Assembly: GCA_963727055.1 (NCBI GenBank)
Contig: CAVSEN010000003.1
Coordinates: 85,810-149,809 of the forward strand
DNA from: an uncultured Chloroflexia bacterium
Lineage (GTDB): Bacteria; Chloroflexota; Limnocylindria; Limnocylindrales; CSP1-4
Length of the DNA stretch: 64,000 bases
Reading direction: 5' to 3'
This document shows positions 12,773 to 40,579 of the stretch, piece after piece (the stretch's first letter is position 1; every line of letters begins with the position of its first letter). The translations under genes were made by a program, and so were the position numbers. The notes under the pieces are model-generated. The model made no database searches. It was not told the DNA's origin and worked only from the letters and a program-made list of their open reading frames with translations.

Positions 12773-17521
<4,749 letters not shown>

Positions 17522-19557: not shown

Positions 19558-19597
19558 CAGGTGGAACCTCCATGGCTTGGGCGGACGTGGCAGGGGA

Positions 19598-22392: not shown

Positions 22393-22416
22393 CTCAGCGA
22401 GAGCCAGGCAGTCTGG

Positions 22417-23601: not shown

Positions 23602-23625
23602 TCCGTGCTCCTCCATCAGGTGTGG

Positions 23626-24771: not shown

Positions 24772-24780
24772 CCGTTTGCC
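24764..24780. promoter_or_regulatory. LacI-type operator candidate TTGTGCAACCGTTTGCC
   Basis: Imperfect palindrome GCAACCGTTTGC in the divergent region between the PotA-like operon and paralog A. It matches sites at 28546, 37028 and 41556. Confidence 0.5.
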
Positions 24781-24846: not shown

Positions 24847-27445
24847 ATGAGCGTCACCCGGCTGGCCACGACCATCGACCTCGAGCCGGCCAGGAACATC
24901 GCCGAGGACGAGCTCGGCGCGCGGTTCCATTCCGCGTATCGACCTGCGCTCGGGCGTCTTCCGGCCGGCCGGCAGGTCTTCCATGGCGTCCCGTTCGATC
25001 TCGGTCCGGGCGCTGGTCAGCGACGCTGGATCCTCGTCGAACGGCCGATCACGCTCGACCTCGGCGGCCGGCCGGCCCGCCACCTCGTCGTCGCCCACCT
25101 GTGCGACACCTGGCGTGACGATCACGGCAACCGGCCGGCCGGCCTGGCCGTCGGCCACGTCGTCCCGGTCGGCGAACGCCTGGCCCGGTACACGATCGTC
25201 GACCGCTCCGGAGCGCGCACCGAGCGGCTGATCCGGCGCCGGTTCGAGGTCAACGACGGGATCCTCGGCTGGGGCTCGGGAGCGTTCCGGGCGGTGGCCC
25301 ACCTCGACAACGAGCCGCTCGACTGGCGCGGTCCGCACCCGGCCCAGGGCGCCGGTCGATACGCGCCGGCCGGCCAGTCGGGCACGCTCACGATCATGCC
25401 CGGCTCGTTCGGCACGGGCCAGGTCGGGATGACCGATTTCGTGCCCAGCCCGACCGACGACCTCCTGCTCTGGCTCCACGCGATCGAGCTCCCGCCCGGC
25501 TCCGAGCCCGTCGAGCTCGTGCTGGAACCGCTGAGCGCCGGCCGCGCCGGCAGCGACCTGATCGTGGCCGGCGTGACCCTGTTCAACGGCTCGGCCGATC
25601 CGCTGGCCCGCGGGCCGCGCTTCCAGGTCCGGGTCGACGGCCCGCCCGGCGCCAGGCTCGAGGTCGACCTGGGCACGGTGATCCGGAGCCGTCCCTCGCC
25701 GGCCCGCGCCGAGGTCGGCTCAGCACGTGGGGCCGAGCCGGCTCGGGTCTCCGGCTGGGGCACTCCACGGGCCGACCCGGATGCCCCGGCCGCTGGGTCG
25801 TCGCTGGTCGACCTGTCGATCGCGCCCGATGCCGTCCTCGCCCTCGACCGATCGCCGATCGCCGGTCGCGACCTGCTCGCCGGCGTGCCCCGCCTCGATC
25901 CCACGGGGCGCTGGTCGATCGAGGTCCTGCCCCCGGCCGACGTGCCGGTCACGATCGAGATCGTCGAGCCGGCGACCGGTGAGCGGGTGCCCGGCCGGGT
26001 CCGGTTCACGGCGGCCGACGGCCGCTACCTGCCGCCGGCCGGCCATCGTGACGAGGTCAATCCGGCGTTCTTCGAGGACACCGGCGGCGACCTCGTCCTG
26101 GGCTCGGCGACCTATGCCTACGTTCCCGGTCGGTTCGAGATCGACCTGCCGGTCGGGGCGGTCGAGGTCGAGGTCGTGGGCGGGTTCGACCGCCGGCCGC
26201 ATCGTGCCCGGCTGGCGATCGAGCCCGGGACGCGCCGAGCTCGTGCTGCCCCTCGAGCGGACGATCGAGCTGCACAGCGGGCGCTGGGTGACCGCCGACA
26301 GCCACGTCCACTTCCTGTCGCCGTCCACGGCGCTCCTCCAGGCTGCGGCCGAGGATGTCGACCTGGTCAACCTGCTGGCCGCCCAGTGGGGCGACCTGTT
26401 CACCAACGTGACCGACCTGCCCTGGGGCGCGATCGCCGACCCGGCCGGCCGCCGGATCGTGGTGCCCGGCACCGAGAACCGCCAGAACATGCTGGGCCAC
26501 CTCGCCCTCCTCGGCGCCCATCGGCCGACGACGCCGCTGGCCAGCGGCGGACCGCCCGAGGGCCGCCTGGGCGGTCCGCTGAGCGTCCTCCTCGCCGACT
26601 GGGCCGACCGCTGCCGGGCCGCCGGAGGTCTCGTCGTGGCCGCCCACTTCCCGCTGCCCTACGCCGAGATCGCGGCCGACATCCTGACCGGCCGGATCGA
26701 CGCAATCGAGACCCAGGCCCTGGCACCCGGCCTCGACGACCCGGCCGTCGTCGAGTGGTACCGCTACCTCAACCTCGGCGAGCGGTTGCCGGTCGTGGCC
26801 GGCACCGACAAGATGTCGGCCGAGGTGCCGATCGGCGCGGTCCGCACCTATACCCATTTGCGCTCCGACGAGCCGCTGACGTTCGCGGGCTGGGCAGCGG
26901 CCGTCCGGGCCGGCCGGACGTTCGTGTCGTCGGGCCCGATCCTCGAGCTGGCCGTTGACGGCCACGAGCCGGGCGCCGTCGTTGCGTTGCCCGGCCCGGG
27001 CCGGCTCGAGGTGACCGTCCGGGCCCGGGCCGCCCAGCCGCTGATCACCGACCTGGAGCTGGTCGTCAACGGGCGGATCGTGGCGGCCAGCCAGGCGGCG
27101 GCCGGCGTTGCCGAGCTCGGCCTGGACGAGTCGGTCGAGCTCCCGGCCGGGGCCTGGATCGCGGCCCGTTCCCGGAGCGGTGACCAGGTCCATTCGGCGT
27201 TCGCAACCTCGATGGCCGCCCATACCTCGCCGGTCTACGTCGAGGTCCGCGACCGGCCACTCAGGCCACCGGCCGACGACGCGGCCGTCGTCGAACAGGT
27301 GATCCTCGGCGCCCGGACCTGGGTCGCCGAGCTGGCCGCCGTGGCCGATCCGGCCAACCGGGCCCGGATGATCGCCTTCTTCGACGCCGCCCTCAAGGCG
27401 CTCGAGGACCGGCTGGCCGGGACCCGCCCCGCCCGCGCGCCCTAG
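24847..27445 (+). CDS. Uncharacterised ~865-aa protein, paralog A. It has an N-terminal beta-rich region of unknown function plus a C-terminal PHP/amidohydrolase-like metal-dependent hydrolase domain. There is one apparent frameshift near 26237.
   Basis: C-terminal domain motifs: WVTADSHVHFLSP, GTENRQNMLGHLALLG, AAHFPLPYAEIAAD, GTDKMS. Frame 1 (24847..~26235) and frame 2 (~26237..27445) are both protein-like and collinear with the paralog at 37101. Confidence 0.7.
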
Positions 27446-28575: not shown

Positions 28576-28676
28576 CGGCTCTCCGGGCCGTCAATCCGGG
28601 CGTGGCCCGGGGCCTCGCTGATAGCCCGGGCTGTGCCCCGGGCTGGTTGCCCGGCTGGGGTTGCGGCTCGCGGCAC

Positions 28677-28754
28677 CGGCTCGTTTGTTTGGCTGGTGGC
28701 CTTGGCTCGTTTGTTCGGATCGTGGCCTTGGCTCGTTTGTTTGGATCGCGGACG
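28677..28754. repeat. Three tandem ~26-bp direct repeats (GGCTCGTTTGTT(T/C)GG(C/A)T(G/C)GTGGCCTT)
   Basis: Read directly from the sequence. They are locally AT-richer than the surrounding DNA and lie in the 590-bp non-coding region upstream of the LacI gene. Confidence 0.6.
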
Positions 28755-28927
28755 ACCAGCGGCCCGACGTGCGGCGCGCCCGCGCCGCGCGTTGCCAGAT
28801 CTCGATTGCAGTCGCGCTTATGGTCGCTCGCGCCGGCCGGATCGGCCGATCCGGGAGATGGAGCCGGGAGTCGAGCACGACGCGAGCCGCCGAACCGTCC
28901 AATCTGGCCTGGCGGGTCCCGGCTCCG

Positions 28928-29020
28928 GCCATACGCGCGACTCGAGTCGCGATTTGACAACACCGCTGCTGGAGCATCGCCTGACTTGCCAGATCGTTCG
29001 CTGAACGACGCGTATGGCCG
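28928..29020. other. Long-range 12-nt perfect inverted repeat (CGGCCATACGCG ... CGCGTATGGCCG) enclosing the 16-bp palindrome CGCGACTCGAGTCGCG; a possible terminator or structured element
   Basis: Read directly from the sequence. It lies downstream of the iol operon's last gene (which ends at 29159) and has no U-tract. Confidence 0.35.
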
Positions 29021-29158
29021 AGGCATGGGACCCAGGCAACGTGATCATGCGTGGGCCGAGCACGAATCGGCCCGCTGCTGACCCCGATTCGACCGCCCTG
29101 GGCCACGAAACAGCGGCCCAGCCACGGACCCGCCGCCGACCCGGAGCCGCCACGGCCT

Positions 29159-29998
29159 CTAACCCAGCAGGTCGACCAGCACCTCACGCAAGCCAGAGGC
29201 GACCGCGAACGGATCGGGCAGCTCCCAGTGGACCGGGCTGTACAGCTCGTTGTCCCACCAGCCGTCGAAGCCGGTCGAGCGGACCGCGGCGACCCATTCC
29301 CGCAGCGGGATCGAGCCGTCGCCGGGCCATACGCAGCGGCTCAGCTGGTCGGGTCCGCCCGCGCCGGGCGTGCCCAGCGAATCGCCGAGGTCGACGCCGA
29401 AGATCAGGCGCGCGTCGAGCCGGGCGACCGCGTCGGGCGTCACGCCGGTCTGCCACAGGTGCCAGAAGTCGAGCACCAGGCCCACGTTATCCGCCCCGCA
29501 CGCCTCGACCGCCTCGACGGCCTCGGCCAGGTCGCCCAGCGGGGTCCACGCGATCGGCTCGAGGTAATAGCGGATCCCGTCGGACGCACCGAGGTGGGCC
29601 ACCGAGCGCAGGCCATCGGCCGTGGCCCGGATCCGGTCGGCCCTCGAGAGCGAGCCGGGGCCCGGATACGCGCCGGTGGGGTCGACCGGCCCGCTGAGCA
29701 GCTGCACGTACGAGGCGCCGACGTCGACCGCCAGCTCGGTCAGCGCCTCGGCCTCCGCGAGCATCGCCGCCCGGTCGGCCGGTCGCCAGCGTTCGACGTC
29801 GGCCAGGGCCCCCAGGTTCACCGGCTCGAGGCCGGCCAGCGCCTCGCGCAGCCCCGCGACCCCGTGGCCCCGGGCGAGGTAGCGGCGGAGGTGCTCCTCG
29901 CGCAGGAAGATTCCGTCCCAGCCGGTCTCGCGGGCCAGCCGGACCTGGTGCAGGGCCGGCAGGTGCATCGTCGAATTCGAGTTGTAGACCAGCCGCAT
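29159..29998 (-). CDS. Sugar phosphate isomerase/epimerase TIM-barrel protein (IolE-like inosose dehydratase candidate)
   Basis: Xylose-isomerase-like TIM family (LVLDFWHLW, GSIPLREW). It is the last gene of the iol-type operon. Confidence 0.7.
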   Translation of the reverse strand: MRLVYNSNSTMHLPALHQVRLARETGWDGIFLREEHLRRYLARGHGVAGLREALAGLEPVNLGALADVERWRPADRAAMLAEAEALTELAVDVGASYVQLLSGPVDPTGAYPGPGSLSRADRIRATADGLRSVAHLGASDGIRYYLEPIAWTPLGDLAEAVEAVEACGADNVGLVLDFWHLWQTGVTPDAVARLDARLIFGVDLGDSLGTPGAGGPDQLSRCVWPGDGSIPLREWVAAVRSTGFDGWWDNELYSPVHWELPDPFAVASGLREVLVDLLG

Positions 29999-30020
29999 CG
30001 GTGCCTCCGTCCTGTCCGGG

Positions 30021-30884
30021 CTAGGCGGAGAATGCGCCGAGGAGCGCGATGCCGACGACGACGAGGGCGATCCCGACCACCTGCCGGGGCGCGAGGCGTT
30101 CCCGGAACAGGACGAACGCGGCGATCGCCGCCATCGGCGCGAACATCGAGGCCAGGACGGACGTGACCGCGATGTCCTGGCGGCTGCCGATCGAGAACGA
30201 GGCGAGCCCGACCACCTCGACGACGCCGGTCAGGACGATGAACGGCACGGCCCGCCGCGGGACGCGTGCCCGGCCGGTGGCCAGGATCGGCAGGCCGACG
30301 ACCAGGACGCCGGCCAGCCGCCCGGGCAGGACGACCCATGCCGGCGGCAGGCTGGCGCTGACCTGGCCGGTCACGAACAGCCCGCTGCCGAGGGCCAGGG
30401 CGGCACACAGGGCCAGGCCGGCTGCCCGGAGCGACTGGCCGCGGCTGATCGGAACGCCCTCCTCGAGCTCATGGCCGCCGCTGGTCGCCGCCAGCACCAC
30501 GCCCACGGCGACGATCGCCAGCACCGGCCCGGATCCGGGCGCGAGCGCCTGGCCGGCCAGCACCGAGATGATTGCGGCGATCGCCCCCTCGGTCGAGCCG
30601 ATCGTCGACACGATCCCGACCGCGCCGATCCGGTAGGCGGCGTAGGCCAGGAGCAGGCCGACCACGTTCAGCCCGCCGGCCAGCACCGAGCCGGCGATGG
30701 TCGAGGCCGGCACCGGCGGCAGTGGCGTGACGAGCAGGGCGACCGGCAGGAGCAGGAGCGACCCGATCAGCATCACGCCGGCGACCGCCGGAACCGCGCC
30801 CGCGATCCGGCTGGAGCGCGCCGAGGAGAGGGTCGAGATGGCGTAGGCGACCGCGGTCACGGCGCCCGCCAGGATCGGCGGCAT
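30021..30884 (-). CDS. DMT-superfamily (EamA-like) transporter
   Basis: Ten predicted TM helices with an Ala/Gly/Leu/Val-rich EamA-like duplication. Confidence 0.75.
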   Translation of the reverse strand: MPPILAGAVTAVAYAISTLSSARSSRIAGAVPAVAGVMLIGSLLLLPVALLVTPLPPVPASTIAGSVLAGGLNVVGLLLAYAAYRIGAVGIVSTIGSTEGAIAAIISVLAGQALAPGSGPVLAIVAVGVVLAATSGGHELEEGVPISRGQSLRAAGLALCAALALGSGLFVTGQVSASLPPAWVVLPGRLAGVLVVGLPILATGRARVPRRAVPFIVLTGVVEVVGLASFSIGSRQDIAVTSVLASMFAPMAAIAAFVLFRERLAPRQVVGIALVVVGIALLGAFSA

Positions 30885-30908
30885 CGAGGACGGTCGTCCG
30901 GCGCTGGT

Positions 30909-31907
30909 TCAATCGACCGGCGCGAGCCGGAGGGGTTGCGCGAACCGGTGCGCCGTGTCGCGGCAGCGCTCGAATGCGGGCAGGGCGACGGCCCGGGCGA
31001 GCCGCTCGGCCTCGGCCGGATCCGGGCTGAGGGCGGGGCCCCAGATACCGCGCCCGGCCAGAAAGCCCGACGCTCCGGCCCGCCCCGCCAGCCGGACCTG
31101 GTCGACGAACTCGTCGATCCCCACGCCCGCCCCGAGGAGCACCCATGGCGTTCCGGCACAGGCGCCGGCCAGCGCCCGGCAGGCCTCGCTCGCCCGGTCC
31201 TCGCCGGCGCTCGCCAGGCCAGGCAGCGGGAACGGCACCTTGAGCAGGTCGGCGCCCAGCGGCTGGAGGCGGGCGACGGCACCAATGACGAGCGCCTCGT
31301 AGGCCAGCGCGTAGTCCGCCGCCGACTCGCTCGACCACTGGTAGGCAACCGGCTCGATCACCAGCGGCAGGCCGTAGCCATGGCAGACCTGGGCGACGCC
31401 GGCAACGAGCGCATCCTGCCGGGCGGCCGATGGCTCGTGGTCGACCCGGTAGGGGAGCAGCAGCTTGCAGGCATCGGCGTGGTGGCTCGGCGCGATGGCT
31501 TCCCAGTCCGCGAGAAGGGTGGTCAGCCGGCCGTCGCCGACGACCTCGTAGCCCTGCGCCTCGATGGGCATGATCAGGCCGATCGAGGGCGGCACGGCCC
31601 CGCTGTCGAAGGCCGCCTGGCCGAGCTCGGCGTCGAGCATCAGGGTCGATGCAGCCGGCGCCAGGACCCTGACCAGGGCGGCCTTCAGGTCCCCCAGCTC
31701 GGCCGTCGTCAGGCCGGCCAGGCCCTGCCGCTCGAGGTAGACCCGCAGGCTGTCGCGGTGGTCGATCGCCAGGCCGGCGATGATCCCATCAGGACCGGCC
31801 AGGCGCAGGAGGCGCTGGCGTCGATCGCGGTCGAGGCCCGCCTGCCGCCCGTGTGCGCGCTCAAGGTCCCGTTCCAGGTGGTCGGCCGGCTCCGTTCCGT
31901 GACGGGT
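30909..31907 (-). CDS. Class I aldolase of the LacD/tagatose-bisphosphate or DUF2090 family (IolJ-type 2-deoxy-5-keto-gluconate-6-P aldolase candidate)
   Basis: LLRLAGPDGIIAGLAIDHRDSL is LacD-like. The GTG start overlaps the iolB stop (GTGA). Confidence 0.65.
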   Translation of the reverse strand, partial: TRHGTEPADHLERDLERAHGRQAGLDRDRRQRLLRLAGPDGIIAGLAIDHRDSLRVYLERQGLAGLTTAELGDLKAALVRVLAPAASTLMLDAELGQAAFDSGAVPPSIGLIMPIEAQGYEVVGDGRLTTLLADWEAIAPSHHADACKLLLPYRVDHEPSAARQDALVAGVAQVCHGYGLPLVIEPVAYQWSSESAADYALAYEALVIGAVARLQPLGADLLKVPFPLPGLASAGEDRASEACRALAGACAGTPWVLLGAGVGIDEFVDQVRLAGRAGASGFLAGRGIWGPALSPDPAEAERLARAVALPAFERCRDTAHRFAQPLRLAPVD

Positions 31908-32833
31908 CACAGGCTGACGAGCGGCAGTCGCGGATCGGGCTTCATCGCCGGCCATTCGGCCCGGATCCAGGCGAAATCGGGATCGTCGCTGTTGGCCATC
32001 GTCCGACGGTCGCCGGCCAGCGCGTTCAGGAAGTAGGCGTCGTAGCCGGGCATGGCGATGAACGGGTGGTAGCCCTGGTCGACGATCAGCAGGTCGCCGT
32101 GCCGGACCGGTATCAGCAGGTCGCGCGACCCGTCACGGTGATAGATCCGCTGGATCGCCGACGCCTCCGGCCGGGCGAACTGGTAGAAGTACGTCTCCTC
32201 GAGGACCGCCTCGCGCGGCGGGTCATCCACGTCGTGCTTGTGGGGCGGCCAGCCAGACCAGCCGCCGGCCGGCGTGAGCACCTCGCAGATCAGCAACCGG
32301 TCGGCCGGGAAGTCGGGCAGCATGATGTTGTTGACCTGCCGGGTGCAGTTGCCGGCGCCCCGGATCTCGATCGCGACGTCGGACGGCCGGACCACGATCG
32401 GCTGGGTGGCGATCCCCGGCCGGCCCGTCAGGGGCGCCTGGGCCAGGGCGACCACGGCGCGCCGCCCGGGCAGCGGCCGGCCGACGATCCGGGCCGTCGT
32501 GCCGGCCGGGATGTACGCGCTCCAGGGCAGGCCCTCGAAGACCGAGGCGCGGCCCGGCAGGGCCAGGCTCGGCCGGTCGTCGAAGGCGACCTCGATGCCG
32601 CCACCGGAGATCGTGACCAGGGCCGCCTCCTGGTCGGGTGCATCGAGCAGGGCAACCTCGCCCTCGGCCAGCGAGAACGAGCGGAACGACAGGTAGCGCC
32701 AGCCCGCCCGGGCCGGGTTGGTGGCCACGATCCCGTCGGCCCCGGGTCGGACATGGAGCAGCTCCGGGGGCAGGCGAGACGGCAGCTTGGCAGCATGGAT
32801 CTCGACGCCCGACTCGTCGCGGGTGGTCGTCAC
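31907..32833 (-). CDS. iolB: 5-deoxy-glucuronate isomerase
   Basis: IolB/KduI cupin family (GGWSGWPPHKHD). The GTG start at 32833 has an AGGAGG RBS 6 nt upstream and overlaps the iolC stop. Confidence 0.8.
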   Translation of the reverse strand: MTTTRDESGVEIHAAKLPSRLPPELLHVRPGADGIVATNPARAGWRYLSFRSFSLAEGEVALLDAPDQEAALVTISGGGIEVAFDDRPSLALPGRASVFEGLPWSAYIPAGTTARIVGRPLPGRRAVVALAQAPLTGRPGIATQPIVVRPSDVAIEIRGAGNCTRQVNNIMLPDFPADRLLICEVLTPAGGWSGWPPHKHDVDDPPREAVLEETYFYQFARPEASAIQRIYHRDGSRDLLIPVRHGDLLIVDQGYHPFIAMPGYDAYFLNALAGDRRTMANSDDPDFAWIRAEWPAMKPDPRLPLVSL

Positions 32834-33804
32834 GGCAGGGCCTCCTGGGCTTGGCTCACGAGCGATCCGCCCGGTCCACGGGCAAGCAGCTCGTCGATCT
32901 CGGCGGGCGCGGGCATCGCCGCGCTGCACATCAGGCGGGAAGCAACGATGGCCCCGGCGGCGTTGCCCCGGGCGATCGCGGCCAGCGGATCGAGGCCGCG
33001 CAGCAAGCCCGCGGCGACGGCCGCCGTGAGCGCGTCGCCGGCGCCCAGCCCGCAGGTCACCTCGACCGGGATCCCCGGCAGCGAGGCGCGCCGGCCGCCG
33101 GCCAGCAACGAGACACCGTCCTGGCCGTGCTTGAGGATCACGAGCCGGGACCCTTCCGCCATGGCCGCCGGGGTGAGGCCGGCGGCGGCGAACTCGGCGT
33201 CGCTGCCGATCAGGAGGTCGCTCAGCTCGGCGGCCCGCTCGATCAAGGCCGGGTACTCGCCGGGGTCCGCCCACAGGGTCGGCCGCCAGTCCAGGTCGAG
33301 GATCGTCCACGACGCGGCCCGCCGATCGCCGGCCGCCAGCCGGTCGGCGAGGATCGCGAGGGTCGTCGAACGGGCCGGCTCGGTCGCCAGGAGGGCGCCC
33401 GAGACGATCACCAGGCGGGCCTTCGACAGCTCGTCGAGGGGCGCCTCGCCCGGCGCCAGGAGCGTGTCGGGGGCCGGTGCCAGGCGATAGAACGTGACCG
33501 GGAAGTGGTCCGGTGGCCAGGCCTCGAAGAAGGCGACCTGCGTCCGCAGCGCGGGCCGGGTCGTCAGGCTGGCGACCGAGATCCCTTCCGCGACGAGGGC
33601 CGTCCGGACGTGCTCACCGTGGCCATCGTCGCCCACGCTCGACACGACGGCCGTGACGATGCCCAGGCGGGCCAGGCCGGTCCCGATGTTGCCCGCGAAG
33701 CCACCCACGGCGCGCCGGAACGAGGCTGCCTCGGCCAGCGACGTCCGGGGCTCGGACGGCGTGAAGTCGACCCCGATCCGCCCGACGACGAAGGCCTCGA
33801 TCAT
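32830..33804 (-). CDS. iolC: 5-dehydro-2-deoxygluconokinase (PfkB family)
   Basis: MIEAFVVGRIGVDF start. It has the PfkB GG motif (GGFAGN) and a C-terminal DTxGAGD-like motif (GLGAGDALTAA). Confidence 0.8.
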   Translation of the reverse strand: MIEAFVVGRIGVDFTPSEPRTSLAEAASFRRAVGGFAGNIGTGLARLGIVTAVVSSVGDDGHGEHVRTALVAEGISVASLTTRPALRTQVAFFEAWPPDHFPVTFYRLAPAPDTLLAPGEAPLDELSKARLVIVSGALLATEPARSTTLAILADRLAAGDRRAASWTILDLDWRPTLWADPGEYPALIERAAELSDLLIGSDAEFAAAGLTPAAMAEGSRLVILKHGQDGVSLLAGGRRASLPGIPVEVTCGLGAGDALTAAVAAGLLRGLDPLAAIARGNAAGAIVASRLMCSAAMPAPAEIDELLARGPGGSLVSQAQEALP

Positions 33805-33818
33805 CGCCGGTCGGGGCC

Positions 33819-35059
33819 TCAGTCGAGGTGCTTCTGGACGGCGTCCCGGAAGGTCAGCGCGCAGGCCCGGGCCTCGTCCGCGCCGTCCCGCATCCGGAGG
33901 CCGAACGGGGCCAGGTTCGCGTCGCGGACGCCGATTCCGATGCTGATCGAGCGATCGAGCAGGGCATCGGTCTGGGGCAGCAGCCCGGTCCGGTAGTCGC
34001 CGTGGGCGTGGCCGGGGACGTCGCAGTCGAACGGGCAGCCCTTGCCGGTGACCGTGCGTCGCTCGAGCAGGTGGTTCATCCGGCTGTAGACATGCCAGCC
34101 CGATTCGGACAGGGTGATCGAACCGACCTCCCGGGCGACCTTGTGGGCGATGTCGGCCGTCGGCAGGACCACGACCAGGTGGGTGGCCAGGTCGCCCTCC
34201 GGATCGGGCAGGTTGCGGAAGCCGATCGCCGGCTCCTCCTCGAGGAACTCCTGGACGATCGCCTTGTTGGCCCGCAGGTGCGAGGTGATCAGGTCGAGCT
34301 TGCGGAACTGGGCCAGGAGGACGGCCCCGGACAGCTCGGTCATCCGGAAGTTCATGCCCAGGAATGGGCGCGGCGCGTACTTCGATTCGAGCCGGTCCGG
34401 GGCATGGCCCTGGTCGTGCATCGCGAAGCAGCGCTCGTAGAGGGCCTCGTCGTCGGTCACGATCATCCCGCCGTCGCCGCAGGTGATCGTCTTGTACTCG
34501 TTGAAGCTGTACACCCCGGCGCTGCCGATCCCGCCGACGCCCTGGCCGTGGTAGGACGCGCCGAACGCCTGGGCGCAATCCTCGACGAGCGGGAGTCCAT
34601 GCTTGTCGGCGATCGCCTTGAGTTCGTCCAGCCGGGCCGGCCCGCCGAGCATGTGGACGACCAGGATCGCCGCCGTGCGCGGGGTGATCCGGGCCTCGAC
34701 GTCGGCCGGGTCGAGGTCGAACGAATCGTCGACCTCGGCCAGGACCGGCGTGGCACCGGCGTAGACGATCGCCGAAATCGAGGCGACGAACGTGAAGCCG
34801 GGCACGATCACCTCGTCGCCCGCCCCGATGCCCAGGCCGAGCAGGGCGATCCACAGGCCGGCCGACCCGCCGCCATGCAGCCCGAGGCCGAAGCGGACGC
34901 CGGCCAGCCGGGCGATCTCGCCCTCGAGATCCGGTGGACCTTGGCCCCGAAGGCGGGGTTGTCCGAGGGGCCGTACCGGCTGAGGAAGCCGCTCGACATC
35001 ACCTCGAGCACCTCGGCCGTCTCCTCGGCCCCGATGAGTTCGACTCCGGGTCCTGGCAT
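33819..35059 (-). CDS. DegT/DnrJ/EryC1/StsC-family PLP-dependent aminotransferase, with one apparent frameshift near 34932
   Basis: The N-terminus MPGPGVELIGAEETAEVLEVMSSGFLSRYGPSDNPAFGAKV (ORF 34808..35059) joins DLEGEIARLAGVRFGLGLHGGGSAGLWIAL...SFNEYKTITCGDGGMIVT (the long ORF) after a -1 shift at 'caccggatctcgag' (GGG->GG). Confidence 0.75.
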
Positions 35060-35131
35060 GTGGCGTTCTCCTGCTAAGCGACGGTTGCCGGCCAGGCCGG
35101 CGGCTGGGTGGGGCGGCCCCGGATGGGGCCA

Positions 35132-37018
35132 TCAGTGGAGGTCGGTTCGCTGCCGGTCGCGGGCCAGCTCGTAGGCGGCCCGGGCGGCCCGCACGCCGGC
35201 CTGTCCGCTGGCCGCCGGGACGGGGACGTCCCACCAGGTCTCGAAGCCGGTGACCCGCTTCTCGGGCTCGGTCGGCACGAGGATCACCGTGACCCGGTCG
35301 GCGGCCCGGGCCTGGGCCAGCGCGTCCTGGAGCTCGCCCGGCGTCCGGGCGAGCAGCCCCAGGGCCCCCATCGCCTCGGCGTGGGCCCGGAAGTCGATCG
35401 GCACGTATGGTCCGCTGAGGCGCCGGCTGGCCGGATCGCGGAAGCGCAGCTCGTTGCCGAAGTCGGGCACCCCGACCGAGCGCTGGAGGGCCAGGATGCA
35501 CTGGAAGCCGTGGTTGTCGAGGACGACGATCGTGAGCTTCAGGCCCTCGGCCACGGCCGTCACGATCTCCGAGTTCATCATCAGGTACGAGCCATCGCCG
35601 ACCATCACGACGACCTCGCGTTCGGGCTCCGCCAGCCGGACGCCCAGCCCGGCGGCGATCTCGTAGCCCATGCACGAGAAGCCGTACTCGACGTGGTAGG
35701 CCTTCGGGTCCTCGACCCGCCACAGGCGGAGCAGGTCGCCGGGCAGGCTGCCGGCGGCGCAGATCACGGTGGCTCGGGCGCCGACGGCATCATTGACCAG
35801 GCCGATCACCTCGGCCTGGCCCAGGTCGCCCGGGTCGCCGCTCAGGGTGCGCAGCTTCGTGACGGCGGCGTCCCACTCCTCCTTCAGGTCGCCCGCCTTC
35901 CGGCGGTAGGCGTCATCGGTGCCCGGGTAGCCGGCCGCGGCCAGCCCGGCGCCCAGGGCCCGGAGGGCCTCCCGCGCGTCGGCGACCACCGGCACGGCCC
36001 GCAGCTTGTGGGCATCGAACGAGCCGATGTTGATCCCGATGAAGGCGACATCCGGGTCCTGGAACGTCGTGTTGGAGGCGGTCACGAAGTCGCCCAGCCG
36101 GGTGCCGACGCACACGACCAGGTCCGCGGTGCGGGCCAGCCGGTTGGCGGCCAGGCCACCGTTCGTGCCGGCCGGGCCCATGTTCATCGGGTGGTCCCAG
36201 GCCAGGGCGCCCTTGCCGGCCTGGGTCTCGACCACCGGGATTCCGAAGCGGGTCGCGAGGTCGGCCAGCTCGTCGGTGGCCTCGGAGTAGATCGTGCCCC
36301 CGCCGCTGACGATCAGCGGCGCCCGGGCGGCGGAGATCAGGCGGACCGCGTCGGCCAGGTCGGCCGCGGCCGGCAACGGCCGGCGGACGCGCCAGGTGCG
36401 CCGGTCGAAGAAGGCCAGCGGCCAGTCGAAGGCCTCGGCCTGGACATCCTCGGGCAGCGAGATCGTCGCTGCACCGGTCTCGGCCGGATCGGTCAGGACC
36501 CGAAAGGCGGCCGGCAGCGAGCCGAGCAGCTGCTCCGGCCGTGAGATCCGGTCGAAGTAGCGGGACACCGGCCGGAACGCGTCGTTCACGCTGACGTCCC
36601 GCTCGATCGGGTGCTCGACCTGCTGGAGCACCGGGTCGGGCGCCCGGTTGGCGAAGTAGTCGCTCGGGAAGAGCAGGACCGGGATCCGGTTGACGGTCGC
36701 CACTGCCGCCCCGGTCACCATGTTCAACGCCCCGGGGCCGACCGACGACGTGCAGGCGAAGGCCTGGAGGCGGTTGAGGTGCTTGGCAAAGGCCGTCGCA
36801 ATGTGGACCTGGGCCTGCTCGTTCTGGGAGCGGTAGAAGGGCATCGCCTCGGCCGCCCCGAGCTCCTCCAGGGCCTGGCCCAGCCCGGCGACGTTGCCGT
36901 GCCCGAAGATGCCCCAGAAGCCGGCGATGAATCGGTGCTCTCGGCCATCGCGCTCGACGTACTGGGCGGCGCAGAAGCGAACGACGGCCTGGCCCACGGT
37001 CAGCCGGACAGTGTCCAT
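35132..37018 (-). CDS. iolD: 3D-(3,5/4)-trihydroxycyclohexane-1,2-dione acylhydrolase (TPP-dependent)
   Basis: MDTVRLTVGQAVVRF start. It shows the acetolactate-synthase-like ThDP fold (GDGSYLMMNSE). Confidence 0.85.
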   Translation of the reverse strand: MDTVRLTVGQAVVRFCAAQYVERDGREHRFIAGFWGIFGHGNVAGLGQALEELGAAEAMPFYRSQNEQAQVHIATAFAKHLNRLQAFACTSSVGPGALNMVTGAAVATVNRIPVLLFPSDYFANRAPDPVLQQVEHPIERDVSVNDAFRPVSRYFDRISRPEQLLGSLPAAFRVLTDPAETGAATISLPEDVQAEAFDWPLAFFDRRTWRVRRPLPAAADLADAVRLISAARAPLIVSGGGTIYSEATDELADLATRFGIPVVETQAGKGALAWDHPMNMGPAGTNGGLAANRLARTADLVVCVGTRLGDFVTASNTTFQDPDVAFIGINIGSFDAHKLRAVPVVADAREALRALGAGLAAAGYPGTDDAYRRKAGDLKEEWDAAVTKLRTLSGDPGDLGQAEVIGLVNDAVGARATVICAAGSLPGDLLRLWRVEDPKAYHVEYGFSCMGYEIAAGLGVRLAEPEREVVVMVGDGSYLMMNSEIVTAVAEGLKLTIVVLDNHGFQCILALQRSVGVPDFGNELRFRDPASRRLSGPYVPIDFRAHAEAMGALGLLARTPGELQDALAQARAADRVTVILVPTEPEKRVTGFETWWDVPVPAASGQAGVRAARAAYELARDRQRTDLH

Positions 37019-37027: not shown

Positions 37028-37045
37028 TTGCGCAACCGATTGCAA
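37028..37045. promoter_or_regulatory. LacI-type operator candidate TTGCGCAACCGATTGCAA
   Basis: It lies in the 83-nt divergent region between iolD (start 37018) and paralog B (start 37101). Confidence 0.55.
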
Positions 37046-37100
37046 CGAAGGTATCATCGCCGCTCACTCCACGTCAACATCGGTCGGAGGGGTCGGCGTG

Positions 37101-39710
37101 ATGACCATCGGGCGCTCCGCTGTGACCTCGCCTGCGGCCCGCCCGATCGACCTCTCGGCGAGCTGGAACGCCTCGGACGCCGAGCTCGGAGCCCGCCTCC
37201 ATCCGCTCTACGGCTCGGCGCTCGGCCGCTTGCCCGAGGGCGACCAGGCGTTCCGCGGACTCCCGTTCCGGCTCGGCAGCCGGGCGGTCGGCGCGCGCTG
37301 GATCGCGGTCGGCGACGGCCTGACGGTCGAGCTGGGGCAGGGGAGCGGCAACGAAGGTCGGGCGAGCCACCTCGTCGTTGCCCACTTCAGCGACAGCTGG
37401 CGAGAGCCGGCCGGTGGCCGGCCGGCCGGGATGCCCGTCGGCTGGGTCCTGCCCACCGGCGAGCCGCTGGCCCGCTACGAGGTGCTGTTTGGCGCCGGGC
37501 GGAGCCAGGTGCTCAACGTCCGGCGCCGGTTCGAGATCGCCGACGGGGTCATCGGCTGGGGCTTCCTGCCGTTCGCCGCCGTCGGTCACCAGGCCGACGA
37601 GGCCCTCAGACTGGCGTGGCCCGTTTCCGCGCCAGGAGGCGGGTCGAACGGCGCCGGCCGGTCACGCCGGCGCGCTCACGATGCTGCCCGGGTCCTGGGC
37701 CGCGGGCCAGTCAGGGGCGGTCGACTACGTGCCCTCGGCCGACGACGACATCACCCTCTGGCTGCACGCCATCCCCCTCGACGACGGCCGCCTGCCGGCG
37801 GCGATCCGGCTCGTCCCGCTGGGGTCGGGGCGGCCGGGCACGGAGGTGGTGCTGGCCGGGTTGACCGCGTTCGAAGGCACGGCCGACCCGCTCGTCCTGG
37901 CCGGGCGACGGGCGTTCCGCGTCGGCGGCAGCCGGGCCTGGCCGGCGATCGACCTGGGCGTCGGGATCCGCGCTCGGCCTGCCGTCCCGGCGCCGCGCCG
38001 AGCAGAGCCGGAGGGGCCCCTCGGCTGGGGACGCGAGGCCGAGCTCGAGCCCGATCGGCGTGCTCGACACGATCGTCGATGCCGCCCTGGCAGCCGACGC
38101 CCGGCTGACGTTCGGGGGCTGGTCGGTAGCCGCCACCGAGCTCGGCAACGAGGTCGTGACCAGCCCGGATGGGACGATCTCGATCCGGGCCCTGCCCAAC
38201 CCCGTGATCCGCGTCGACGTGCGCGTCTCGGCCGGCGGGGAGCCCACCCCGAGCCGGGTCCGGTTCGTTGCCGGCGACGGCCGCTACCTGCCGCCGGTCG
38301 GCCATCGCGACGAGGTCAACCCGGGCATCTTCGAGGACAGCGGTGCAGGCCTGATCCTGGGCGCCGACACGTTCGCCTACGTCCCGGGCGAGTTCCGGGT
38401 CGACCTGCCGGTCGGCGCCGGTCGAGGTCGAGGTGGTCAAGGGCTTCGACCATCGCCCGGTCCGGATGGCGATCGAGGTCGGGCCGCAGGCGCGTGAGCT
38501 CGTCGATCGACCTCGACCGCCCGATCGACCTGCGCCCGGCCGGCTGGCTGACGTCCGACTCCCACGTCCACTACATCTCCCCGTCGACCGCCCTGCTCCA
38601 GGCGGCCGCCGAGGACGTGGCCTTCGTCCACCTCCTGGCGACCCAGCTGGGCGACCATTTCACCAACATCCCCGACCTCAGCTGGGGTTCGCAGGTCGAG
38701 CCGGGCGGCCGGCACGCGGTCATCGTCGGCACCGAGAACCGGCAGAACGTGCTCGGGCACCTCGCCCTCCTCGGCGCCCGTCGGCCGGTGGCGCCGTACG
38801 CCTCCGGCGGGGCGCCCGAGGGCCGGATCGGGCAGCCGGTCAGCGAGCTGCTCGCCGACTGGGCCGCCGAGTGCCACGCCCAGGGCGGCCTGGTGGTCGC
38901 GGCCCATTTCCCCCTGCCGTTCGCCGAGATCGCGGCCGACATCGTCGCCGGCGAGATTGACGCGGTCGAGATGCAGTGCTTCGCGCCCGGTCTCGACAAC
39001 CCGTCGATCCTCGAGTGGTACCGGTTCCTCAACTGCGGCTACCGCCTGCCGGTCCTGGGGGGCACCGACAAGATGTCGGCCGAGGTGCCGGTCGGTGCCG
39101 TCCGGACCTACGCCCGGCTCGACCCCGACGTCGCCGCCGACCTTCGAGGCCTGGTCGGCCGCCGTCCGCGCGGGCCGGACCTTCGCGACCTCGGGGCCGG
39201 TCCTCGAGCTGCTCGTCGACGGCCACGAGCCGGGTGACGTGCTGTCGCTGCCGGCCTCCGGCGGCCGCCTCGCGGTCGACGTCCGGGCCAGGGCGGCCCA
39301 GCCCGTCATCCAGGCGATCGAGCTGGTCGTCAACGGCCGGGTCGTCGCCCGCGAGGCGGCCGGCGCGGAGACCGGCGAGCTGCGCCTGGCGGCGAACGTC
39401 ACGATCGAGGCCGGCTCATGGATCGCGGCCCGGGCCCTGCAGCGATCGCCAGGTCTACTCGGCGTTCCGCTCGAGCATGGCCGCCCACACCTCGCCGGTC
39501 TACGTCGACGTCCTCGACCACCCGCTCCTCGTCGCCGCCGATGCGCAGGCGATCCTGGCCGTGATCGACGGGACCGCGCGCTGGCTCGAGACGATGGCGG
39601 CGATCGACGATCCCGCCGTCCGGGCCCGGATGGTGGCCCGGATCGAGGCAAGCGGCCGCCGCCTGCGCGGCCGGCTCCGGCAACAGGCAGAGGGAGGCGT
39701 CCTGAGATGA
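37101..39710 (+). pseudogene. Uncharacterised large hydrolase-like protein, paralog B (~45% identical to paralog A by eye), interrupted by ~6 frameshifts
   Basis: GGAGG-GTG-ATG start. It is collinear with paralog A across frames. Frameshifts lie near 37607, 38055, 38415, 38496, 39130 and 39440. The C-terminal motifs are conserved (WLTSDSHVHYISP, GTENRQNVLGHLALLG, AAHFPLPFAEIAAD, GTDKMS). Confidence 0.7.
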
Positions 39711-40579
39711 AGATCGCGCTCGATCCATACATGCTCCGCGAGCGGCCCTTCGGCGAGGTCTGCCGGATCGCGGCGGACATCGGCTACGACTCGATCGAGC
39801 TCTCGCCGCGGCCCGACTTCATCCCCTTCTTCGTCCACCCGCGGGCCGACCGGGCCAAGGTCGCCGAGTTCCGGACCGCGCTCCGCGAGACGGGCCTCGA
39901 GCTGGCCTCGATCCTGCCCCTCTACCGCTGGTCGAGCCCGGACGAGGACGAGCGCCAGGCGGCGGTCCGCTACTGGAAGCGGGCGATCGAGCTGTGCGTC
40001 GACGTCGGCTGCAGCACGATGAACTCGGAGTTCAACGGCCGGCCCGAGCTGGCCGCCCAGAGCGAGGCCCAGTTCTGGCGCTCGATGGAGGAGCTCCTGC
40101 CGATCTTCGAGCGGGAAGGGATCCGGCTCAACCTGGAGGCCCACCCGGACGACTTCATCGAGCGCAACCAGGAGGCCGTCGACCTCGTCCGGGGGATCGA
40201 CTCGGACCTCGTCCGCTACGTGTTCTGCGCGCCGCACACGTACTACCTGGGCGACGACATCGCGGCGATGATCGCCTACGCCGCGCCGGTCCTCGCCCAG
40301 GTCCACATCGCCGACGTGCTCAACCACCGGGCGTCCTCCGGCCTGCGCTACATCGTCAACCCGCCCGGGTCGCCGGCCCGGGTCCACCAGCACCTCGACA
40401 TCGGCCAGGGCGAGGTCGATTTCGAGGCCTGCTTCGGCGCGCTGGCGGCAGTCGACTTCGACGGAATCCTGACCAGCTGCGTCTTCGCCTGGGAGGAGCG
40501 TGCCGTGGAGTCGTCACGGTTCATGTTCGAGACAATCCAGGGCCTGCTGGGCGGGACTAGGCGAGCAGGCCGGCAATGA
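39707..40579 (+). CDS. Sugar phosphate isomerase/epimerase (xylose-isomerase-like TIM barrel)
   Basis: MKIALDPYMLRERPFGEVCRIAADIGYDSIELSP... The ATG overlaps the paralog B stop (ATGA). Confidence 0.85.
   Translation: MKIALDPYMLRERPFGEVCRIAADIGYDSIELSPRPDFIPFFVHPRADRAKVAEFRTALRETGLELASILPLYRWSSPDEDERQAAVRYWKRAIELCVDVGCSTMNSEFNGRPELAAQSEAQFWRSMEELLPIFEREGIRLNLEAHPDDFIERNQEAVDLVRGIDSDLVRYVFCAPHTYYLGDDIAAMIAYAAPVLAQVHIADVLNHRASSGLRYIVNPPGSPARVHQHLDIGQGEVDFEACFGALAAVDFDGILTSCVFAWEERAVESSRFMFETIQGLLGGTRRAGRQ

Follow-up and report, generated by a model that had tools for sequence, protein, structure and literature searches.

The window analyzed here, a 64 kb stretch of Chloroflexota DNA, raises the question of which compound is degraded by an operon of inositol-type enzymes with an embedded PLP aminotransferase, and of how that compound enters the pathway. 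The catabolic operon is real and comprises seven tightly packed minus-strand genes exactly spanning 29,159–37,018, in the order that an earlier note on this DNA had given: iolD, DegT aminotransferase (AT), iolC-like kinase, iolB, class I aldolase, EamA transporter and TIM barrel. That note had also claimed the absence of an IolG-type dehydrogenase, and indeed no Gfo/Idh/MocA gene lies within the operon. Identical synteny seen in related genomes shows that the arrangement is not due to chance. The first gene, iolD (35,132–37,018, minus strand; ATG at 37,018, RBS AAGGAGG), encodes a 628 aa THcHDO hydrolase (TIGR04377, 889 bits, cut-off 715) with three TPP-enzyme Pfam domains, and was recovered with tblastn as a single intact segment with 76% identity to the IolD of locus L001. 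Downstream of AT, the IolC-like PfkB kinase (32,830–33,804, minus strand, 324 aa; Pfam PfkB) has TIGR04382 as its best NCBIfam match (248 bits, below the cut-off of 300) and is presumed to be a 5-dehydro-2-deoxygluconokinase. Its stop is overlapped for 4 nt by the GTG start of iolB (31,907–32,833, minus strand, 308 aa), which encodes 5-deoxy-glucuronate isomerase (TIGR04378, 244 bits, cut-off 205). The class I aldolase of the DeoC/LacD family (30,909–31,910, minus strand; Pfam DeoC; PRK12858 177 bits against a cut-off of 184) has the YihT sulfofructosephosphate aldolase (91 bits) and a DUF2090 protein (86 bits) as PDB matches, and presumably stands in for IolJ. An EamA/DMT transporter of 287 aa (30,021–30,884, minus strand; Pfam EamA in two stretches) precedes the last gene, a xylose-isomerase-fold TIM barrel of 279 aa (29,159–29,998, minus strand; AP_endonuc_2, 99 bits). 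The latter had been labeled IolE-like, which did not hold: IolE was not matched among the NCBIfam models, while its family profile (A3) retrieved IolI from the PDB (1I60, 93 bits, E-value = 1e-25; next match 47 bits), placing it in the inosose isomerase family. A hairpin followed by a T-run, located 3′ of this gene (29,113–29,130, minus strand), is terminator-like as a consensus match only, with a count not above that of shuffles.

AT, a DegT-family enzyme (33,819–35,059, minus strand; Pfam PF01041, DegT_DnrJ_EryC1, 255 bits), is interrupted in the window. Its true start is at 35,059, and a 2-nt insertion at approximately 34,926–34,933 shifts the frame after codon 44, leaving the first 44 codons in a different frame from the remainder; the gene measures 1,241 nt (1,239 + 2), with homologues intact at 412 aa. 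Past the frameshift the frame is open for 393 codons, with 95% identity to P0001 (412 aa) over residues 44–411. The best 120 database homologues share 75–95% identity and are all 411–412 aa long, except for two of 430 aa. The frameshift is counted against our main reading, although similar breaks in other genes of the window indicate assembly noise.

Concerning its relatives, the earlier note had argued from membership of the StsC/BtrS-type inosose aminotransferases. The DegT PLP family was confirmed, but AT is KdnA-like rather than StsC/BtrS/MosB-type, and the argument from family membership therefore fails. KdnA (PDB 5K8B) is the closest solved relative (270 bits, E-value = 3e-79, residues 4–376, nearly full length) and the PLP lysine motif SFNEYKTITCGDGG is conserved between the two, while the inosose aminotransferases 7B0D, 5W70 and 2C7T reached 148, 143 and 128 bits, not above nucleotide-sugar enzymes. 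This lack of specific kinship counts against the main reading. MosB, StsC and BtrS/BtrR/RbmB share the Pfam family and PLP chemistry with AT, a kinship at family level only, and belong to biosynthetic clusters, whereas AT lies in a catabolic operon. Enzymes of the MosB/StsC/BtrS type interconvert scyllo-inosose or deoxy-inosose with inosamines via Glu/Gln, and transamination of scyllo-inosose by MosB and other DegT enzymes counts in favor (PMC6668481). KdnA itself is the 8-amino-3,8-dideoxy-D-manno-octulosonate transaminase of Shewanella oneidensis. Paired with the Fe-alcohol dehydrogenase KdnB, it adds an amino group to the C8 aldehyde of Kdo in the making of lipopolysaccharide, in contrast to the catabolic context of AT; no KdnB or Kdo genes were found here. 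The substrate of KdnA is reportedly a free sugar and not a nucleotide sugar (Gattis et al. 2013), which counts for the main reading, but the enzyme works on a chain aldehyde and not on a ring ketone, which counts against it. A relative of AT with 41% identity is found on a Roseibium plasmid, within a heptose-type biosynthetic cluster.

The operon is not an isolated unit. A putative LacI operator, GCAACCGNTTGC, is found 3′ of a TTGACG promoter ahead of iolD, lacI and an ABC transporter operon. Its exact sequence has three copies in the 64 kb, each 3–6 nt past a TTGACG-17-nt promoter; with up to one mismatch there are 7 matches against 1.0 expected, a number reached by none of 100 shuffles. Copy 1 (GCAACCGATTGC, 37,032–37,043) is located between the P_iolD promoter (-35 box TTGACG at 37,072–37,077) and the iolD RBS, in a region common to iolD and the divergent hydrolase 1 gene. 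Copy 2 (28,548–28,559) lies 3′ of a TTGACG -35 box (28,589–28,594), about 50 nt upstream of lacI, a position kept in L001–L011 and L059. Copy 3 (GCAACCGTTTGC, 24,768–24,779) is directly 3′ of the ABC operon promoter TTGACG-17-TAGCAT (24,811–24,783), in a region common to that operon and the divergent hydrolase 2 gene. The LacI-family repressor (27,442–28,497, minus strand; Pfam LacI and Peripla_BP_3) shows 73% identity to the LacI at the same position in L001.

The co-regulated operon encodes a PotABCD-type ABC importer (20,622–24,751, minus strand), with an ATPase carrying TOBE_2, an SBP_bac_6 binding protein and two permeases according to Pfam. The binding protein (22,417–23,616) has a TAT signal and resembles polyamine binders (Lmo0810, PotD and PotF are closest in the PDB) rather than ribose-type inositol binders, which counts for the main reading; the weakness of these matches, at most 42 bits, is counted against it. 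The distal part (17,603–20,596) contains an F420-dependent LLM oxidoreductase (19,598–20,596, minus strand; TIGR03560, 202 bits), an IolM-like Zn-dehydrogenase (18,556–19,689, minus strand; NF041097, 226 bits, below the cut-off of 450) and the most IolE-like gene of the window, a dehydratase (17,603–18,505, minus strand; TIGR04379, 151 bits, below the cut-off of 290; PDB IolE 3CNY, 87 bits). That the IolC-like, IolE-like and IolM-like proteins all fall under their curated cut-offs also weighs against the main reading.

Two CehA/McbA-type metallohydrolase genes flank the seven-gene operon. Hydrolase 2 (24,850–27,445, plus strand, ~864 aa) has a C-terminal CehA/McbA-family metallohydrolase domain (NF038032, 144 bits, cut-off 80) and one frame change near 26,232–26,264, as revealed by tblastn with the intact L001 protein; it gave no match in Pfam or the PDB. 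Its paralogue, hydrolase 1 (37,101–39,653, plus strand, ~878 aa), has at least five frame changes in the window and is followed 3′ by an intact TIM-barrel gene (39,707–40,573, plus strand; whole region 37,101–40,573). No characterized close relative was found for either hydrolase, which is counted against the main reading. One flanking TIM barrel matches IolO weakly (36 against a cut-off of 300). The window's two Gfo/Idh/MocA genes (49,133–50,341 and 52,009–53,067; IolG scores of 89 and 117 bits, cut-off 355), previously invoked as support, carry no weight, as both belong to a separate, unrelated cluster.

Comparison with 80 species-level loci, all from uncultured MAGs, links AT to the ring chemistry. 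In the search for iolD–DegT adjacency that the earlier note had suggested, IolD was located within 10 kb of AT in 16 of 17 full-length loci (AT identity at least 69%), with IolD scores of 832 bits in group B and 883 bits in group C. The lower pathway consists of IolB, IolC and aldolase in group A, of lactonase, 2-hydroxyacid dehydrogenase, HpcH aldolase and SDR in group B, and of IolB, transaldolase and a split transketolase in group C. Since it varies between groups while the AT–IolD pair holds, AT is tied to the ring-processing half and not to the lower half. Across these three operon architectures AT accompanies true IolD and IolE-like, IolI-like and IolM-like enzymes, and its recurrent neighbors are inosose-acting families (IolI-like, IolE-like, IolM-like and, in 30 of 76 loci, Gfo/Idh/MocA). 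The IolI-like gene adjoins AT in Planctomycetota and Acidobacteriota loci too, the ABC importer adjoins it in group C, and the EamA transporter is kept in group A. The operator lies 30–50 nt upstream of the AT start in the majority of loci of groups B and C, and upstream of iolD and of lacI in group A. Every lineage also pairs AT with a metal-dependent amidohydrolase (CehA/McbA-like in 22 loci, M81 in 5, Amidohydro_2 in 2, PIG-L in 1), consistent with a masked amine being freed first and deaminated afterwards.

Taken together, we tentatively propose, at somewhat less than an even chance, that the operon forms part of one catabolic regulon under LacI control, which would break down an amine-bearing cyclitol compound, an inosamine and a GlcN-inositol both being candidate substrates. 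The earlier idea that AT stands in for IolG, channeling an amino compound into the steps of IolD, IolB, IolC and the aldolase, has lost its basis in family membership, and yet it is the best explanation after comparative genomics, because AT travels with ring enzymes, sits behind the operator and is accompanied by a polyamine-type importer. Also in its favor, a single operon with translational coupling and no IolG unites true IolD and IolB with a class I aldolase and an IolC-like kinase. The analysis shows the gene identities, how the operon is built, the operator and promoter common to the three units, and a conserved co-location of AT with IolD, IolE-like and IolI-like genes; which way AT runs, where on the cyclitol the amine is located, what the hydrolases do and which substrate is used are inferred. 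The compound would be brought in by the polyamine-type ABC importer, and one or both cytoplasmic CehA/McbA-type metallohydrolases would strip an N-substituent, freeing the amino group. AT, as the pathway entry, would then transfer this group to a 2-oxo acid, yielding a ring ketone (inosose). The ketone may be converted by the IolI-like isomerase, or by the IolM-like and F420 dehydrogenases, for the IolE-like dehydratase, after which IolD would open the ring to 5-deoxyglucuronate, and IolB, the IolC-like kinase and the class I aldolase would lead to DHAP and malonic semialdehyde. We know of no abundant natural inosamine that would explain such a regulon across several soil and freshwater phyla, which counts against this reading, as does the fact that the evidence derives entirely from uncultured MAGs.

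Newly found here are the LacI operator and regulon, the flanking hydrolases, the transporter operon and the co-location of AT and IolD across lineages; the first three, like the frameshift in AT, had escaped the earlier note. Like iolABCDEFGHIJ of B. subtilis (Yoshida et al.), the regulon combines equivalog-level IolD and IolB with IolC-like, IolE-like and IolI-like proteins, ring cleavage toward DHAP and malonic semialdehyde, and repressor control. Unlike it, the Chloroflexota regulon lacks IolG, IolA, IolT/IolF and a class II IolJ, having a class I aldolase instead; it embeds a DegT AT, uses a polyamine-type ABC importer, is flanked by the two hydrolases, carries its IolE-like gene in the transporter operon and has a LacI-type regulator instead of the DeoR-type IolR. 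Thermotoga maritima (IolG, IolM, IolN, IolO) offers a parallel in IolM, the scyllo-inosose 3-dehydrogenase that is the best match of the co-regulated Zn-dehydrogenase, but the scores are low (IolM 226 vs. 450, IolO 36 vs. 300) and IolD, IolB and IolC are present here instead of IolN and IolO. To our knowledge, the only described system for aminocyclitols as carbon and nitrogen source is moc (scyllo-inosamine and 3-O-methyl-scyllo-inosamine), a rhizobia-only pathway thought to feed the inositol pathway, with a ribose-type binding protein (MocB), a GntR/MocR regulator and the MocDEF oxygenase. The rhizopine catabolism locus of Sinorhizobium meliloti L5-30 is mocCABRDEF (PMC6668481). It resembles the present regulon in its TIM-barrel (MocC) and Gfo/Idh/MocA (MocA) proteins but has no aminotransferase, and moc-type genes were not found in the Chloroflexota operon.

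Alternatively, the amine could reside on a sugar attached to inositol. The substrate would then be a pseudo-disaccharide of the GlcN(Ac)-inositol type, for instance GlcN-Ins or GlcNAc-Ins set free from the mycothiol of actinobacteria; mycothiol producers are plentiful in the same habitats. The hydrolases would remove an N-acyl group, after which transamination at the C2 amine of GlcN by AT would give a 2-keto-glycoside. Once the IolI-like barrel had moved the carbonyl to C3, inositol would be eliminated by another TIM barrel, oxidized by the Zn-ADH, F420 enzyme or a Gfo protein, and passed through the IolE-like enzyme, IolD, IolB, IolC and the aldolase. Locus L061, from Acidobacteriaceae, has the order IolI-like gene, AT, PIG-L/LmbE deacetylase (BshB1 118 bits, Mca 69, MshB 49), Gfo, TIM barrel, PhyH and sugar porter, and it also holds IolD, an HpcH aldolase and an IolE-like gene; a BshB/Mca/MshB-like deacetylase beside AT speaks for a GlcN-glycoside over an inosamine and so weighs against the main reading. 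DegT enzymes being mainly sugar aminotransferases, with the free-sugar substrate of KdnA, and the constant amidohydrolase partners of AT point the same way, as do the regulon's four distinct TIM barrels and its several dehydrogenases, reminiscent of 3-keto-glycoside elimination pathways, and the weak likeness of a TIM310 homologue to 2-hydroxy-3-keto-glucal hydratase (8RO4, 38 bits). However, just 1 of 81 loci has PIG-L, the hydrolases of the Chloroflexota are from an unrelated family, and the loci yielded no equivalog of a glycoside 3-dehydrogenase or lyase. Elimination of the aglycone from a 2-keto-glycoside is impossible unless the postulated isomerization comes first, the window regulon has no recognizable IolG to oxidize the released inositol if neither the Zn-ADH nor the F420 enzyme serves, and we know of no DegT enzyme acting on the C2 amine of a glucosaminide. 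This substrate is considered unlikely, though far from negligible.

In an improbable third scheme, AT would act at the exit of ordinary inositol catabolism, aminating malonic semialdehyde (to beta-alanine) or 5-deoxyglucuronate in place of the missing IolA, and the EamA-type transporter present within the operon might export the product. KdnA, the closest characterized homologue, does aminate an aldehyde on a sugar acid; an IolA-type aldehyde-dehydrogenase ORF was not found in the window or in 80 of 81 loci, and malonic semialdehyde is the expected end product of variants A and C and a possible one of variant B. Against this, beta-alanine is catabolized only back via malonic semialdehyde, a dead end costing nitrogen, and known malonic-semialdehyde transaminases are class III enzymes. 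Moreover, in L041 and L069, where IolD and any lower pathway are missing, AT is still accompanied by the IolI-like barrel and Gfo, and its fixed partners are ring enzymes, hydrolases and the amine-type importer, whereas the lower pathway is swapped between lineages.

We give similarly little credence to a regulon for plain myo-, scyllo- or chiro-inositol, in which the IolM-like Zn-dehydrogenase or F420 enzyme replaces IolG and AT is an accessory or an unrelated passenger, here an inactivated pseudogene. The regulon's dehydrogenases could oxidize an inositol, inositol operons often carry extra TIM barrels and dehydrogenases, and AT is frameshifted in the window; its conservation among the best 120 homologues, the operator of its own that it has across most loci of groups B and C, the long open frame past a break of the assembly-noise kind and an importer that is not of the sugar/inositol type argue otherwise.

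Pairs of a dehydrogenase and a DegT enzyme are also known to make kanosamine and inosamines (NtdABC, BtrS/NeoA), which would favor a biosynthetic role. That a Gfo protein or the Zn-dehydrogenase and AT together make an inosamine, as in rhizopine and aminoglycoside pathways (PMC6668481), is hardly credible despite the biosynthetic setting of the Roseibium relative, as glycosyltransferase, methyltransferase and other tailoring genes were not found, LacI co-regulates an importer with an extracytoplasmic binding protein, and AT is co-transcribed with irreversible ring-cleavage and lower catabolic enzymes.

At the G+C content of the window (~72%) spurious ORFs abound, and genes were therefore called by third-position G+C first and by family searches second. 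The best protein matches of the window belong to MAGs of Chloroflexota, 'Candidatus Limnocylindrales'. The iolD operon is a real feature, and the family searches bear out the gene list, order and coordinates of the earlier note (seven minus-strand genes, 29159-37018). The iolD gene is located at 37018-35132 (TIGR04377, 889 bits against a cut-off of 715). The DegT-family PLP aminotransferase gene, hereafter AT (33819..35059; PF01041, 255 bits), lies between iolD and an IolC-like PfkB kinase at 33804-32830 (best match IolC, 248 bits against a cut-off of 300). Then follow iolB at 32833-31907 (TIGR04378, 244 bits, cut-off 205), a class I aldolase (DeoC/LacD) at 31910-30909, which is related to DUF2090 and YihT and is not the class II IolJ, an EamA transporter at 30884-30021 and an IolI-like TIM barrel (AP_endonuc_2) at 29998-29159, all on the minus strand. 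Overlaps of 4 nt join the kinase, iolB and aldolase genes, and a terminator-like hairpin is found 3' of the last gene. The terminal TIM barrel, which had been called IolE-like, gave no IolE match; a profile built from its family hits IolI (1I60, 93 bits, E = 1e-25, full length), the inosose isomerase. The most IolE-like gene is located at 17603-18505 (151 bits against a cut-off of 290; 87 bits with PDB IolE 3CNY).

The operon does lack an iolG-type dehydrogenase, with no Gfo/Idh/MocA gene among its seven genes, and the operator-marked regulon as a whole yielded no IolG either. As candidates for the missing IolG, the two Gfo/Idh/MocA genes at 49-53 kb were rejected: with 89 and 117 bits they fall short of the TIGR04380 cut-off (355), and they belong to a separate cluster (true DeoC, SIS protein, ribose-type ABC transporter) devoid of the operator. 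Concerning IolA, no ORF with an aldehyde-dehydrogenase motif was found in the window and no Aldedh domain in the scanned genes; the Rfam scan of the window returned no RNA families. Inositol catabolism is textbook biochemistry, and the predicted route here runs much as the lower part of the B. subtilis iol pathway does. Compared with the canonical iol operon, IolD and IolB are present above their cut-offs; for want of IolG, IolA and a class II IolJ, it is not, judged by its sequence, a canonical iol operon.

AT belongs to the DegT/DnrJ/EryC1/StrS family, carrying PF01041 and the conserved PLP lysine, which lies in SFNEYKTITCGDGG, aligns with the lysine motif of KdnA and is invariant in alignment A1. 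KdnA is also the closest solved structure (270 bits, E = 3e-79, residues 4-376, PLP-lysine motif conserved). The earlier note had placed AT in the StsC/BtrS group, an identity that has to be given up: the inosose aminotransferases StsC, BtrS and MosB give 128-148 bits against 270 for KdnA and 162 for ArnB, which puts them at most level with ArnB and perosamine synthase. Identity with rhizobial plasmid DegT genes is ~33-34%. From these sequence comparisons, AT is a DegT member and an orthologue of neither StsC/BtrS/MosB nor KdnA. Neither KdnB (Fe-alcohol dehydrogenase), the partner of KdnA, nor Kdo/LPS genes were present among the neighbours in the window and 81 loci. MosB demonstrates that scyllo-inosose is accepted by enzymes of the DegT family (PMC6668481). 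Relatives of AT from cultured organisms are only ~40% identical and come from Roseibium, in a biosynthetic context, and from Embleya, where the relative is unannotated. The relative on the Roseibium aggregatum plasmid NZ_CP128602.1 (34745-35968, 41% identity) is surrounded by rfaE2, rfaD, radical SAM enzymes, PhyH dioxygenases and a GT9 glycosyltransferase, clearly a biosynthetic setting; the KdnA-like subfamily thus extends to enzymes aminating higher-carbon sugars.

A putative LacI operator, the 12-mer GCAACCGNTTGC (also written as GCAACCGATTGC), has exactly three exact copies in the 64-kb window, at 37032-37043 before iolD, at 28548-28559 before lacI and at 24768-24779 before the ABC transporter operon. 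With one mismatch allowed there are seven matches against 1.0 expected, a number reached in 0 of 100 shuffles. Each copy lies 3-6 nt 3' of a TTGACG-17 nt-TAnnnT-like promoter, and the copies are conserved in related loci. A palindromic motif with a central CG, repeated before the regulated operons and the regulator gene, is the mark of a LacI regulon and was found here at the level of predicted sites. Its positions before iolD, lacI and the ABC operon place these three units under one predicted LacI-type repressor, whose gene lies 3' of the operon on the same strand. Both divergent hydrolase genes probably belong to the same regulon. These paralogous genes of ~870 aa, hydrolase 1 (37101-39653) and hydrolase 2 (24850..27445), are established on the two sides of the operon and carry a C-terminal metallohydrolase domain of the CehA/McbA family (136-144 bits, cut-off 80). 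Signal peptides, Pfam matches and PDB sequence matches are absent from both; the AlphaFold model is poor (pLDDT 63, catalytic domain <50), and its Foldseek matches are Ig-like sandwiches only. The operon divergent from hydrolase 2 encodes a PotA-like ATPase, two permeases and a TAT-signal SBP_bac_6 binding protein with polyamine binders as its nearest PDB matches, as well as an F420-dependent LLM oxidoreductase, a Zn-dehydrogenase with IolM (scyllo-inosose 3-dehydrogenase) as best match, and the IolE-like gene.

Another TIM-barrel gene is located 3' of hydrolase 1, and PDB searches with the two flanking TIM barrels gave nothing informative except a weak match to 8RO4. Operon and lacI are separated by an unusually long spacer (28498-29158), of 660 bp against ~210 bp in L001, a related MAG locus; it contains a 26-bp tandem repeat at 28678-28748 (GGCTCGTTTGTTTGGATCGTGGCCTT, 2.7 copies, 91% matches) and shows neither coding signal nor Rfam match.

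In a comparison covering a single genome of each GTDB species, 80 loci with an AT relative (49-90% identity over the best segment) were recovered; they were annotated by tblastn, clustering and family searches. Every one of them is from a MAG; Chloroflexota predominate, and Acidobacteriota, Planctomycetota, Actinomycetota and further groups contribute some. Group A (AT at least 76% identical to that of L001) has the arrangement of the window free of frameshifts, as in L001 itself. Group B (AT ~70-73%) has an AT-Gfo-F420 LLM operon as well as a hydrolase gene and lacks IolB and IolC; its divergent operon encodes an IolE-like protein, an SMP30 lactonase, a 2-hydroxyacid dehydrogenase, a Gfo protein, an HpcH aldolase, IolD (832 bits) and an SDR. 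The TPP enzyme of this group, 44% identical to the IolD of the window, was considered as a different enzyme, a reading dropped on its passing the IolD cut-off. Group C (AT 60-68%) combines hydrolases, transaldolase, IolD (883 bits), split transketolase and IolB (230 bits) with AT, LacI and the same ABC transporter, and lacks IolC and the aldolase. In group D (AT <60%) most loci lack these partners; IolI-like-AT-Gfo modules persist, accompanied by another amidohydrolase, namely Amidohydro_2, an M81/MlrC-like peptidase or, in locus L061, a PIG-L/LmbE deacetylase. A search for iolD-DegT adjacency, as advised together with the original gene list, found the association conserved: IolD lies near AT in 20 of the 37 loci with full 10-kb flanks and in 16 of the 17 where AT is at least 69% identical. 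The association holds even where the lower pathway is completely exchanged, and AT is thereby linked to ring processing.

In the majority of group B and C loci a putative operator, GCAAnCGnTTGC, precedes the start of AT by 30-50 nt. In the window, the 72-nt gap between iolD and AT (35060-35131) holds GGCAACCGTCGCTT, retaining one operator half-site (GCAACCG), which may be the relic of an AT-proximal operator of that kind. Five loci (L025, L026, L027, L033 and L059; e.g., L026:4227-9889) carry a divergent transaldolase and a split transketolase instead of the IolC kinase and aldolase, adjoining true IolD and IolB. By analogy with the sulfo-TAL and sulfo-TK routes of sulfoquinovose, this suggests that 5-dehydro-2-deoxygluconate is cleaved there with no kinase; we know of no description of a kinase-free inositol branch of the transaldolase/transketolase type. 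A third lower branch, with true IolD and an IolE-like gene and lacking IolB and IolC, occurs in L009-L018, L020, L023 and L030 (e.g., L018:2470-9900). Its SMP30 lactonase, D-2-hydroxyacid dehydrogenase, levoglucosan-dehydrogenase-like Gfo, HpcH/GarL-like aldolase and SDR may form a non-phosphorylative route for 5-deoxyglucuronate. In other phyla (L061:9105-16212, L069:7365-12137, L041:371-6542) AT stands beside different enzymes, along with Gfo and IolI-like genes: a PIG-L/LmbE deacetylase (BshB/Mca/MshB-like), dioxygenases of the PhyH family, to which the kanamycin deaminase KanJ belongs, and M81/MlrC-like peptidases or Amidohydro_2. This context looks like a recurring module of amide hydrolysis, deamination and keto-reduction.

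The recurrent partners of AT all belong to inosose-acting families (IolI-like, IolE-like, IolM-like, Gfo/Idh/MocA and IolD), and a metal amidohydrolase always accompanies it. Together with the amine-type importer, these make a six-step catabolism of amino-cyclitols the simplest model, one to which we give somewhat less than an even chance. An N-substituted amino-cyclitol compound would be taken up, its amine would be unmasked by hydrolysis, and transamination would give a ring ketone, which isomerisation or redox adjustment would convert to scyllo-inosose; dehydration by the IolE-like enzyme and ring opening by IolD would follow, and then IolB, IolC and the aldolase would act. For the AT step we infer both substrate and direction. 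On chemical grounds, the IolD substrate could be reached from deoxy- and diamino-cyclitols as well: oxidation of 2-deoxy-scyllo-inosose beside its carbonyl would give the constitution and configuration of THcHDO, and a 3-amino-inosose could lose ammonia, not water, in an IolE-type elimination. More broadly, we tentatively read the locus as an undescribed regulon in which, once a novel metallohydrolase has acted, a KdnA-like AT would take the place of inositol dehydrogenase at the entry to IolE/IolD ring cleavage, drawing on an overlooked pool of amine-bearing cyclitol compounds. With the same reserve, such a regulon might be common among uncultured Chloroflexota of soil and freshwater and have relatives in Acidobacteriota, Planctomycetota and Actinomycetota; inosamines or GlcN-inositol derived from mycothiol, for example, would possibly serve as carbon and nitrogen sources, and the lower branches, including the kinase-free transaldolase/transketolase one, would be interchangeable.

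In the main rival the amine is carried by an inositol-linked glucosamine, mycothiol-type GlcN-Ins being an example. This reading, which we consider rather unlikely, is suggested by the PIG-L gene next to AT in L061 and by the large number of TIM barrels. It is very doubtful that AT converts malonic semialdehyde to beta-alanine: the aldehyde chemistry of KdnA and the general absence of IolA would suit it, but the product would be a metabolic dead end and the loci without IolD would be left unexplained. That AT is a passenger or a pseudogene is unlikely. Homologues in the database have 411-412 aa, except two of 430 aa, and their similarity to the apparent ORF begins only at its residue 69, so that a start at ATG 35132 (437 aa, overlapping the iolD stop) was rejected; the true N-terminus, MPGPGVELIGAEE..., starts at 35059 in a different frame with its own RBS. 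The frame is shifted by a 2-nt insertion near 34926-34933, where the window reads CACCGGATCTCGAG, L003 (another related locus) CACCGGATCGAG and L001 CACCATCTCGAG; by this comparison, two strain variants seem to have been merged at the site. The other 393 codons remain open, with 95% identity to P0001, an intact 412-aa homologue, and similar breaks occur in other genes of the window, which in our view makes an assembly error more likely than a pseudogene. A biosynthetic role of the cluster is also unlikely.

Besides the single +2 insertion in AT (34926-34933), there is one frame break in hydrolase 2 (26232-26264), at least five in hydrolase 1 (37101-39653) and one in a TIM-barrel gene (40955-41056), while a PFOR-like gene (12000-16400) shows many switches of frame by third-position G+C; iolD, iolB and iolC are free of breaks. 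This uneven spread suggests assembly or strain-merging errors, and real decay of hydrolase 1 is also possible.

The rhizopine moc locus has the concept in common with the amino-cyclitol model but none of the defining genes: the Rieske/ferredoxin, Peripla_BP_4 and GntR-aminotransferase markers of MocDEF, MocB and MocR are absent from the regulon. We know of no pathway in which a transaminase feeds inositol catabolism, and a search of the literature on iolD-aminotransferase or aminocyclitol catabolic pathways yielded nothing relevant. If true, the amino-cyclitol model would supply, for the hardly known fate in soil and water of aminocyclitols and inositol-glucosamine conjugates (rhizopines, aminoglycoside cores, mycothiol breakdown products), a testable gene set (AT, binding protein, repressor with operator and two orphan metallohydrolases) in abundant uncultured Chloroflexota, and the first physiological context for the KdnA-like DegT subfamily and the CehA/McbA-like hydrolases. 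Repressor, operator and binding protein would also be parts for aminocyclitol biosensing, as sought in rhizopine engineering, and the swapped lower branches suggest that 5-deoxyglucuronate metabolism is possible without IolC and IolJ.

Two further clusters were annotated. The first, at 49133-58743 on the plus strand, is a sugar cluster with zero operator copies; it encodes a levoglucosan-dehydrogenase-like Gfo, a TIM barrel, a second Gfo, a SIS_2 protein, a true deoxyribose-phosphate aldolase (218 bits against a cut-off of 117), ribose-type ABC genes (Peripla_BP_4 binding protein, ATPase, permease) and a further ORF at 57751-58743. The second, at 2924-11778, is a transport and catabolic cluster with a MalK-type ATPase, two permeases, a 570-aa SBP_bac_1/8 protein, a glyoxalase-fold protein, an SDR, a GntR/YhfZ regulator and a DUF4432 protein (316 bits).
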